Shown here in pieces: positions 31,389 to 31,915 of a DNA stretch of 64,000 nt; the stretch's first letter is position 1, and the number at the start of each line of letters is the position of its first letter. The DNA is from Desulfomonilia bacterium (lineage in GTDB: Bacteria > Desulfobacterota > Desulfomonilia > UBA1062): the NCBI GenBank assembly GCA_963664325.2, contig CAXXDQ010000002.1, positions 96,001 to 160,000 on the forward strand. The letters run 5' to 3'. The translations under genes were made by a program, and so were the position numbers. The notes under the pieces are model-generated. The model did no database searches, was not told the DNA's origin, and saw only the letters and a program-made list of their open reading frames with translations.

Positions 31389-31392
31389 AAAG

Positions 31393-31450
31393 CAGGAGAC
31401 AGGAGACAGGAGACAGGAGACAGGAGACAGGAGACAGGAGACAGGAGACA
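31393..31450 (+). repeat. Perfect tandem heptamer array (CAGGAGA)8
   Basis: Eight exact units plus CA, starting 4 nt after the upstream stop codon. Confidence 0.95.
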
Positions 31451-31460
31451 AAAAGATCAA

Positions 31461-31844
31461 ATGAATGAGACTGTCAACAAAATAATCAAGCCAGCAAAAA
31501 GATTTGAAGAACTGCTGGTCTGGCAGAAAGCACATAAAATGGTTCTTGAAATATATATGATCACAAAAGGTTTTCCAGCTCAGGAGATTTACTGTTTAAC
31601 ATCTCAAATGAGAAGGGCTGCAATATCAATACCTGCTAATATTGCTGAAGGGTTCAAGAAAAAGGGCAAAGCAGACAAGTTGCGTTTCTTAAATATCTCT
31701 CATGGCTCACTTGAAGAACTTAAATACTATTTAATTTTGTCTCATGATCTTGGATATATTTCAAAAAACAATTTAACATTACTAATAGAAGAGGTCAGTA
31801 AACTTATTGAAGGTTATTCAAAAGGGATAAGGAATTCGGAATGA
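31461..31844 (+). CDS. Four-helix-bundle protein (23S rRNA IVP / TIGR02436 family, Avd-like)
   Basis: FEELLVWQKAH…FPAQEIYCLTSQMRRAAISIPANIAEG…RFLNISHGSLEE…DLGYI. Confidence 0.93.
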   Translation: MNETVNKIIKPAKRFEELLVWQKAHKMVLEIYMITKGFPAQEIYCLTSQMRRAAISIPANIAEGFKKKGKADKLRFLNISHGSLEELKYYLILSHDLGYISKNNLTLLIEEVSKLIEGYSKGIRNSE

Positions 31845-31892
31845 CCCTGAATTGTATTCCAGCCGAAATCAGATTGTTTTTATGGTTTTATA

Positions 31893-31915
31893 CTGTCTCC
31901 TGTCTTCTATCTACT
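31893..31915 (-). repeat. Inverted degenerate heptamers matching the upstream array
   Basis: Plus strand C-TGTCTCC-TGTCTTC-TATCTAC-T; the reverse complement reads in CAGGAGA register. Confidence 0.75.

Follow-up and report, generated by a model that had tools for sequence, protein, structure and literature searches.

Organization of the locus

The window analysed here is a stretch of 64,000 nucleotides (nt) from the genome of a Desulfomonilia bacterium (G000; 9 contigs, 95.6% complete), and the element described is a cassette of about 570 bp, from 31389 to approximately 31956, in which a gene for a 127-aa four-helix-bundle protein lies between two inverted arrays of a 7-nt unit (Table 1). Coordinates are positions in the window unless stated otherwise. 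The preceding open reading frame (ORF), of 881 aa, ends with the stop codon TAA at 31386–31388, the bases AAAG follow, and the CAGGAGA units begin at 31393; their array had the top score among the 24 Tandem Repeats Finder rows obtained for the window. Downstream of the gene, the units TGTCTCC-TGTCTTC-TATCTAC occupy 31894–31914, and the minus strand from 31889 to 31909 fits the two-unit pattern except for 2 mismatches. When as many as 2 mismatches were allowed, this pattern was found 15 times in the window, compared with 0.29 matches expected and with 0 of 100 shuffles reaching 15; five of these matches form a second site, at 40570–40618. The G+C content of the cassette gene was 33%, compared with 49–50% for two neighbouring genes.

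An earlier interpretation of the letters alone (the sequence-only reading) had described eight perfect CAGGAGA units 4 nt after a stop codon, an A+T-rich four-helix-bundle ORF and three inverted degenerate units behind it, and all three were recovered. Its limits for the block, 31389..31915, gave the location correctly, but the insertion runs about 40 nt farther downstream. The ORF-less inverted element at 40570–40690 was not in its list.

Table 1. Features of the cassette and of the ORF-less foldback in the window
Feature	Positions	Strand	Basis or remarks
5' arm, (CAGGAGA)x8.3	31393..31450	+	Tandem Repeats Finder: period 7, 100% matches, score 116
127-aa four-helix-bundle ORF (23S rRNA intervening sequence protein / Avd-like)	31461..31844	+	PF05635, TIGR02436
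Possible inner 3' arm relic, degenerate ATTCNGA-like units over the stop codon	31831..31862	+	Position only; low confidence
Inner-end motif GGTTTTATAC (complement of CAGTATAAAACC)	31884..31893	+	Common to ORF-less copies
3' arm, degenerate units complementary to the 5' arm (…CTG TCTCCTG TCTTCTA TCTAC)	31889..31914	+	
A+T-rich tail from the 3' arm to the GH38 ribosome-binding site	31915..31956	+	Mostly missing at empty sites
ORF-less foldback 5' arm, ~7 degenerate CAGGAGA units	40570..40618	+	After MFS transporter gene stop codon
ORF-less foldback 3' arm (TTCCTGTTTCCTGACTGCTA)	40668..40690	+	

The possible relic over the stop codon was listed because the 3' array of relatives starts within the end of the ORF and supplies its stop codon.

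Presence and absence of the cassette within the genus

The region from 30600 to 32700 was searched in three other genomes of the genus (G001, G002 and G003). The spacing between the upstream ORF and the GH38 gene was 15 nt in G002 and 25 nt in G003, compared with 582 nt in G000, and G001 carries the cassette at the same junction. The block is therefore an insertion: two of the three other genomes of the genus have an empty site at this junction. The empty sites contain no foldback, the gene and both arms being missing together. These results answer the empty-site comparison that the sequence-only reading had suggested, and they agree, together with the recurrence of the layout across phyla described below, with its idea of a repeat-delimited cassette.

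The flanks of the cassette in G000 and G001 are 76% identical, yet the 5' arrays are perfect in both genomes, with 8.3 and 8.9 copies, respectively. At the G001 locus, about 100 bases between the upstream stop codon and the array read as N. In view of this 24% divergence of the flanks, the array has been homogenised or regenerated, and not merely inherited.

The sequence-only reading had also suggested that array length could tune translation. According to this explanation, each CAGGAGA unit would offer a Shine–Dalgarno core, and array slippage would tune or phase-vary the ORF or the downstream GH38 gene. AGGAG is indeed present in each unit, the last unit is 12 nt away from the ATG, the copy number differs between the two orthologues and among the ORF-less arrays, and that of a published rRNA intervening sequence is strain-variable (PMC4990558). 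On the other hand, the orthologous array of G001 (locus L098, G001:C13) lies 58 nt upstream of the ATG, most units of the family contain no AGGAG (e.g. AGTGGTG, CAGAATC, AAGTTTT and CGTTGGT), and a matching inverted arm downstream would have no role. The suggestion was not sustained by these data, and such a device is considered very unlikely.

Characterization of the four-helix-bundle protein

The cassette ORF matched PF05635 with 126.2 bits (cut-off 33.8; E 7.5e-37) over model positions 1–104 of 106, and TIGR02436 with 118.9 bits (cut-off 24). Residues R52, S56, N60, E63 and G64 are present and satisfy the helix motif R-x3-S-x3-N-x2-E(G) of the family, taken from PMC3936711; E63 is invariant among the 68 family members aligned, of which 67 have S56. 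The protein matched PDB 2gsc, an entry of five chains, at E 2e-18, and it is probably a pentamer-forming four-helix bundle, as predicted from its sequence. Comparison with the G001 orthologue over 127 codons gave pN 0.139, pS 0.689, dN/dS 0.08 and a dS of about 1.9; the ORF is under strong purifying selection since the split between G000 and G001.

PF05635 matches were detected in 16 of the 41 related genomes searched (G000 included), with up to 24 matches in one genome. Relatives occurred on 34 plasmids, and a search of 50,697 phage records gave none. The genes of PF05635/TIGR02436, a large family without known function, carry the annotation 'S23 ribosomal protein' or 'four helix bundle protein'. 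Several reports associate the family with CRISPR-cas loci and diversity-generating retroelements (DGRs) (PMC3936711, PMC10910872, PMC10053308), and Zhang et al. (2013; PMC3936711) reported 18 such genes within cas loci, for example between cmr3 and cmr2.

The cassette could be regarded as a DGR remnant or satellite, in which an Avd protein would work with a reverse transcriptase encoded elsewhere and the arrays would arise from templated repeat synthesis. The protein has weak matches to the Avd models PF22296 (33.3 bits) and NF033474 (37 bits) and to phrog_3206 (E 4.9e-11), and the purine-rich 5' end and pyrimidine-rich 3' end of each strand may be likened to the product of telomere-like end addition. 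However, the cut-offs of the two Avd models are 40 and 80 bits, respectively, and no template/variable repeat pair was seen. Pfam detected no transposase or reverse transcriptase family in the 48 long ORFs of the window, as the sequence-only reading had noted, and RVT_1 gave no match across the whole 95.6%-complete G000 genome. Since no reverse transcriptase was found, the DGR explanation fails, and we consider it extremely unlikely.

Generality of the layout across genomes

A search of one genome per species yielded 67 loci with identities of 38–81% and more than 10 phylum-level labels. In total, 87 loci were analysed, 24 of 30 from the related-genome set and 63 of 67 from the one-per-species set; L016, L017, L025–L027, L030, L091 and L095–L097 were left out as partial or sub-threshold. 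Tandem Repeats Finder, applied to the 67 one-per-species loci only, detected 55 repeats of period 7, 29 of period 14, 4 of period 21 and 1 of period 28 at up to 250 nt from the gene (33.0 kb), and 25, 3, 3 and 0, respectively, at more than 400 nt (135.8 kb). With a strict self-similarity score, the best period was 7 in 64 of 172 gene flanks, compared with two controls, 12 of 403 windows taken from the same loci and 16 of the 16,565 tiles of G000; in the remaining flanks it was 8 in 6, 9 in 3 and 4 in 1, and 98 had none.

Among the loci with two arms, the upstream unit is the reverse complement of the downstream one, with at most 1 mismatch, in 24 of 33, involving 16 unit types, and a direct arrangement fits only 2 of 33. 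The arms therefore change together. The 7-nt periodicity and arm inversion that the sequence-only reading had asked about in the flanks of family members were thus encountered, and a gene between inverted heptamer arrays is a general layout of the PF05635 family. Related loci are not independent, and these counts overstate the significance.

The unit type follows the protein clade on a tree of 68 proteins, 19 of the 87 having been dropped for a length outside 95–175 aa or for internal stops. The clade of the window protein has CAG-A-type units (CAGGAGA, CAGAAGT, CAGAATC, CAGAATA and CAGTAGT), and its sister pair has GAGTGGT and GAGGGGT. Within this clade, a verrucomicrobial subclade has 8–9-nt units (CAGGAGTT, AGGAGTTGC) rather than 7-nt ones; it comprises L035, L042, L045, L046, L052 and L064, and its arms are still inverted (0 mismatches in L045). 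AG is present in 25 of 29 unit types of the 5' arm (CT in 2), and CT in 24 of 30 unit types of the 3' arm. The 5' arm is purine-rich whichever strand is read. A purine-rich arm upstream of the ORF was rejected as evidence of gene orientation: since the arms are inverted, this polarity is a property of the foldback, identical on both strands.

The array length peaks at 31–35 nt, and 30 of 66 arrays consist of four whole units (28–34 nt), i.e. approximately five unit cores. The median distance from the end of the 5' array to the start codon is 24.5 nt, and in 21 of 53 loci the 3' array starts no later than the stop codon. On crude ORF calls, the gene points the same way as both of its neighbours in 52 of 75 loci and opposite to both in 9. 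Clear cases come from two cultured cyanobacteria, NPUN_RS35280 on plasmid pNPUN02 of Nostoc punctiforme PCC 73102 and AVA_RS28115 on plasmid C of Trichormus variabilis ATCC 29413, in which 5+5 units tightly abut the ORF: five units end 2–3 nt ahead of the ATG, the C-terminal tail with its stop codon is encoded by five complementary units, and the following host gene begins 2–35 nt further on.

Exceptions are L007, with period 8, and L012:1360-1900 (G012), with arrays of the 15-nt unit CCCTACAGTCTAAAT that are direct and not inverted; L057, L073, L075 and L080–L082 were scored as loci without an array. At L034:1492-1725 and L073:1492-1767 the gene is broken by premature stops and heptamer arms are retained; judging by these sequences, both are decaying copies. 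In a reverse test, 1 of 79 distinct TAACTGA-array loci (136 kb) has the gene, which is not clearly above chance; at that single locus the gene lies between inverted TAACTGA arrays.

Other heptamer elements in the source genome

Judging by PtsI, the closest named entries to G000 are metagenome-assembled genomes labelled Bacteriovoracaceae (92% identity), and the next ones have about 50% identity. G000 has exactly two PF05635 genes. The second one (C7:925399-925713) also lies between inverted heptamer arrays, one of AGTGGTG and one of CACCACT units, in a cassette that spans C7:925275-925863. A scan for at least 3 units with up to 1 mismatch detected 38 arrays at about 37 loci of the genome, every one of the CAGGAGA or AGTGGTG type; 20 of the arrays are inverted pairs with A+T-rich spacers of 20–130 nt, all of them intergenic. 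The genome has about 35 dispersed foldbacks without an ORF, which belong to these two unit types. The gene-bearing cassette and the ORF-less CAGGAGA-type elements have in common the inner-end motif CAGNATAAAA(CC) and its complement, and this type of inner end is present in at least 8 of the 14 A-type elements listed.

In the ORF-less foldback of the window (40570–40690; Table 1), the arms are 49 nt apart, and the RNA fold has −50.1 kcal/mol with a z of −5.24, a strong hairpin in comparison with shuffled sequences. All four genomes of the genus have this element at one common site, with a differing number of units, and it is an old one. Four further ORF-less elements of G000 were compared with the related genomes: two (C7:150014-150176 and C3:908188-908327) are precisely absent in both G002 and G003, one is present in G002 and one was ambiguous. 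Both resolved insertions lie exactly on overlapping stop/start codons (GTGA, TTGA) of the empty-site genomes, and no target-site duplication is readable at either. ORF-less copies with the same units are dispersed in the genome and differ between related genomes. The codon overlaps at the empty sites are those of translationally coupled genes (L355/L356 compared with L366, L367, L369 and L370). In G000, the outer units of both inserted elements give the upstream gene a new stop codon (TAA or TAG).

The number of sequence windows with CAGGAGA was 57 and 55 in the genomes that carry the gene, compared with 18 and 3 in those that do not. In four DNA runs, metagenome contigs break within the array of the cassette, at 31421, and the depth of its flanks was 2–10; the raw-read run contributed 5 reads, and these data carried no information on copy number or excision. 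Summed contig depths in the array bin 31396–31439 reached 232–566 in runs X1, X3 and X4; this excess over the flanks indicates many other CAGGAGA-type arrays in the same metagenome samples.

Evidence for movement

The clearest signs of transposition were found in G010, a 2.2-Mb genome of the same family as G000, in 290 contigs and with 24 mostly partial PF05635 matches. Its copies are 88–99% identical over 235–300 nt, and their termini consist of GTARCCRTTCACGG followed by 3–4 heptamers (GAAATTG and its complement). The terminus motif occurred 295 times, and its reversed form, used as a control, 0 and 1 times. The short copies correspond to a 454-bp copy, L015:1424-1877, with internal stretches deleted; the genome contains a burst of about 150 deletion derivatives or copies of a truncated four-helix-bundle element (L015, L323–L351). 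Among 22 left/right terminus pairings in 18 loci, 6 have a perfect 8-bp direct repeat and 2 a repeat with 7 of 8 matches, while 0 of 84 shifted controls reached 6 of 8; one extra perfect 8-bp repeat, at L330, was recognised by eye. Relatives of the cassette have thus transposed with 8-bp duplications. The duplicated targets are A+T-rich. The terminus GTARCCRTTCACGG holds the small palindrome GCCGTGAACGGC, and many contigs of G010 end in the element.

Outside G010, direct repeats of at least 8 bp were found at the arm boundaries of 3 of 32 two-armed loci (L032, 9 bp; L039, 8 bp; L065, 8 bp), compared with 0 of 96 displaced controls. In L032, L039 and L049, from Bacillota-labelled metagenome-assembled genomes, the cassette is located at the same sigma-factor/anti-sigma junction, each with its own differing 8–9-bp direct repeat, which suggests either several insertions into one and the same site or conversion from one repeat to the other.

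Five Y1_Tnp (IS200/RAYT-like) ORFs are present in G000, none beside arrays, and the Y1 class of transposases is not known to make target-site duplications. These ORFs are paralogous, of about 315–343 aa, and are located at C3:843562, C3:53266, C8:84088, C7:134288 and C7:547690.

These results bear on the possibility that the arrays are host repeats, i.e. hairpins born by slippage that resemble short tandemly repeated repetitive (STRR) or repetitive extragenic palindromic (REP) sequences and act as mRNA stabilisers or insulators, with the gene as a separate passenger that lands, or is simply tolerated, in hairpin loops. The ratio of ORF-less to gene-bearing foldbacks in G000, about 35 to 2, agrees with this explanation, as do the single gene among the 79 TAACTGA loci, the foldback maintained at one site throughout the genus with its stable fold, and the position of rRNA intervening sequences in helix loops (PMC4990558). 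It does not account for the empty sites at the window locus, from which gene and arms are absent together, nor for a unit type that tracks the protein phylogeny across phyla; moreover, the ORF-less copies of G010 are internal deletions of a gene-bearing copy with the same termini, and gene-bearing and ORF-less copies of G000 share an inner-end motif. We judge a host-repeat origin improbable. The data indicate that the cassette is a discrete, horizontally spread, insertion-type unit whose arms are kept as complementary heptamer arrays.

Possible RNA pairing and relation to rRNA intervening sequences

The two arms of the cassette can form a duplex of 32 pairs with −40.1 kcal/mol, and G000 has an RNase III gene (232.9 bits; cut-off 166.25). 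The intrinsic terminator scan gave 0 sites on the + strand of the cassette, and no sigma-70 promoter-like site was found on this strand, the single site detected being on the minus strand, within the ORF. Rfam covariance models (31000–41000, E≤1) identified no family for the cassette or the ORF-less element, their sole match being a chance snoRNA match at 36242–36333, and PADLOC gave no match.

The closest published counterpart is a 23S rRNA intervening sequence (IVS) described by Warrier et al. (2016; PMC4990558), of 428–444 nt, with an ORF for S23p (= PF05635) and a 28-bp terminal stem, located in the loop of an rRNA helix. Directly before the start codon it has 2–3 tandem GACAGAT heptamers and a degenerate one; strains differ in the number of heptamers, and the RNase III cut falls where the first repeat begins. 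The paper also reports reductive evolution of the IVS ORF, with no detectable protein, and repeats the idea, credited to Ralph & McClelland (1993), of the IVS as a mobile element with the ORF as its mobility component. Such rRNA IVSs (Leptospira, Coxiella) and the cassette thus share a PF05635-family ORF in the loop, sense to the host transcript, with heptamers of varying copy number before the start codon (GACAGAT x2–3 in the IVS and CAGGAGA x8 here), a stem of 28 bp in one case and about 32 imperfect pairs in the other, and a similar size (428–444 nt and about 570). They differ in that the cassette lies between protein-coding genes, the 23S rRNA gene of the window being at 59306–62308, in that its ORF is under purifying selection whereas that of the IVS undergoes reductive evolution, and in that RNase III cutting was observed for the IVS, while the present cassette is known from sequence. 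Among the loci of the intervening-sequence protein and of TAACTGA arrays that were compared with 23S rRNA, none gave a match, and for this reason the tie to rRNA IVSs comes from one paper, PMC4990558. The 23S rRNA gene of the window is complete, with 3003 nt against a model of 2925 positions, i.e. about 78 nt extra.

Comparison with other known systems

The Avd protein of DGRs is a homologous, pentameric, positively charged barrel of four-helix bundles. According to bioRxiv 10.1101/2023.10.23.563531, each of the five protomers of its pentamer takes part in binding an RNA stem-loop, whose flipped-out bases lie in the inter-protomer crevices. It thus recognises a structured RNA encoded beside its own gene through five equivalent pockets, which provides a precedent for one unit per protomer. 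In contrast, the cassette has neither a reverse transcriptase nor a template/variable repeat, its protein scores below the Avd-specific cut-offs, and the target proposed here is a periodic array and not a single stem-loop.

Inverted ends made of tandem short units are also characteristic of foldback transposons; the eukaryotic FB (foldback) elements have inverted ends of short tandem subrepeats. With these and with miniature inverted-repeat transposable elements, the present elements share, in addition, many deleted copies beside rare coding ones, target-site duplications (8 bp, in G010) and presence/absence polymorphism between relatives. Unlike them, they have no recognisable transposase, their sole ORF encodes a 127-aa helical bundle, and they insert at operon gene junctions, mostly in sense.

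Orphan tandem heptamer repeats are known in several bacteria, the STRR sequences being among them. MacGregor (2015; PMC4679880) described orphan TAACTGA arrays whose patchy spread suggested horizontal transfer, with 'no mechanism evident'. As here, these are short intergenic 7-nt arrays, of 2 to more than 40 copies, often a few nt from start or stop codons, and the taxa concerned (cyanobacteria, Beggiatoaceae and Bacteroidetes) are also rich in PF05635 genes. They were published as direct repeats, for which S1, Csp or CsrA were the binders proposed, and the available text of the source mentions neither a four-helix-bundle gene nor inverted pairing.

TRAP is a ring-shaped homo-oligomer that recognises spaced (G/U)AG triplets. 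If binding of the arrays is true, the analogy would extend to the ring of identical subunits, to an AG motif per subunit and to about five units for a pentamer; the fold is unrelated, the arrays here are inverted pairs at the ends of a mobile unit, and binding is proposed from the sequences. The sequence-only reading had drawn the comparison with TRAP, and the AG-bearing units, the usual array of about five units, the five chains of 2gsc and the RNA binding by five Avd protomers are consistent with it. A different explanation is a domesticated RNA-binding regulator: the pentamer would bind its own leader and about 35 other intergenic array regions and control translation or stability in the manner of TRAP or CsrA, the arrays forming its regulon. 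Purifying selection at a fixed locus (dN/dS 0.08), arrays that adjoin the stop and start codons of operon genes, the sense orientation of single purine-type arrays right after stop codons (9 versus 2) and the AG in 25 of 29 unit types of the 5' arm are consistent with such a regulator, and a post-transcriptional regulator was proposed for the TAACTGA repeats (PMC4679880). It would leave unexplained the empty sites, the 8-bp duplications and the burst of deletion derivatives, as well as the occurrence of near-identical protein clades, each with its own units, over more than 10 phyla, and AGTGGTG arrays persist in G001 despite a truncated cognate gene. This explanation is therefore regarded as unlikely.

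Proposed mechanism and its assessment

On the basis of these results, it seems fairly probable that the cassette is an IVS-type, transposon-like small selfish insertion at the junction of a sugar-utilisation operon, whose pentameric protein recognises the heptamer arrays. The arrays would be terminal or subterminal recognition sites of the pentamer encoded by the element itself, with one AG-containing unit per protomer, and this would explain the modal number of five units and the co-variation of unit and protein clade. The complex of protein and array would be needed for propagation, the cutting and joining being carried out by the protein itself or by a host or trans-acting enzyme. The cassette would be transcribed with the host operon, and its arms may pair into a stem of about 20–30 bp with the ORF looped out, a plausible substrate of RNase III by analogy with the rRNA IVSs; such a stem would make insertions at gene junctions tolerable.

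Several observations weigh against this interpretation. At the window copy, the flanks have diverged by about 24% and no target-site duplication is readable; its short 3' arm consists of degenerate units. Since the G000/G001 split (dS about 1.9), the cassette has kept the same locus under strong purifying selection, and a fixed locus with such selection fits a gene useful to the host at least as well as a purely selfish one. Clear target-site duplications are limited to the genome of one distant family member, G010, where the whole gene of the 454-bp copy is now frameshifted; 29 of 32 two-armed loci outside this genome have no flanking repeat. A trans-acting transposase may share the ends of the G010 element, for which only 100 of the 295 termini were listed. 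No transposase, integrase or reverse transcriptase is present in the cassette or the window, and, to our knowledge, the four-helix-bundle protein has no known catalytic fold. The link between presence of the gene and number of dispersed arrays is mixed: AGTGGTG windows numbered 49 in G001, in which the gene is truncated, compared with 40 in G000, 40 in G002 and 19 in G003, and a GAGGGGT-type gene has zero dispersed arrays.

The evidence for pairing at the RNA level is likewise divided. The sequence-only reading had proposed that the arms pair on the mRNA, and the 32-pair duplex, the RNase III gene and the IVS precedent agree with it. Against this, the fold of the whole cassette is no better than that of shuffled sequences (z −0.92, 17 of 100 being as good), and mismatches between the arms are G-U-compatible in 29 cases and A-C in 25; with no excess of G-U, the mismatches do not demonstrate selection on pairing at the RNA level.

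Other observations in the window

Two overlapping ORFs downstream of the ORF-less foldback, at 40743–41192 (CoA-binding domain) and 41110–42144 (succinyl-CoA-ligase-like), look like one frameshifted gene, the putative frameshift being near a T run at about 41185. With regard to the neighbours of the cassette, the GH38 gene (31971–34838) and a GH1 gene (27404–28753) named in the sequence-only reading were confirmed by Pfam, whereas the 881-aa ORF, which it had called flippase-like, has no Pfam or NCBIfam match; by its features, it weakly resembles Polysacc_synt/MurJ/MATE clusters (0.84, no more than a lead).

Implications

In a wider interpretation, the PF05635 'IVS proteins' would be the mobility proteins of a previously unrecognised minimal class of prokaryotic transposons. 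Taken as a whole, we find this doubtful, although it deserves consideration. A gene of about 120 codons would encode a pentamer that reads five heptamers per end and synapses the inverted arrays; the protein would catalyse cut-and-paste insertion with 8-bp duplications, or a host enzyme would be recruited for it, and the preferred targets would be operon stop/start junctions and rRNA helices. The rRNA IVSs, the four-helix-bundle genes in cas and other operons and the orphan heptamer arrays (the TAACTGA, STRR-like arrays of cyanobacteria, Beggiatoaceae and Bacteroidetes) would then be one element family. In the open full-text literature, with subscription journals and bioRxiv supplements outside this scope, no general link between the protein family and heptamer arrays was found, only the description of a single IVS. 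If this class exists, the co-variation of unit and protein would be a natural, reprogrammable repeat-recognition code.

If the heptamer-armed mobile cassette proposed here is true, the role of the protein, the origin and spread of rRNA IVSs and the origin of heptamer arrays become testable together. The cassette would also show, in compact form, how an oligomer reads a periodic nucleic-acid code, the unit of which evolves along with the protein. In annotation, these ORFs and their arms are to be marked as one mobile feature, and the presence of such genes within unrelated operons may reflect insertion at a junction and not functional association.

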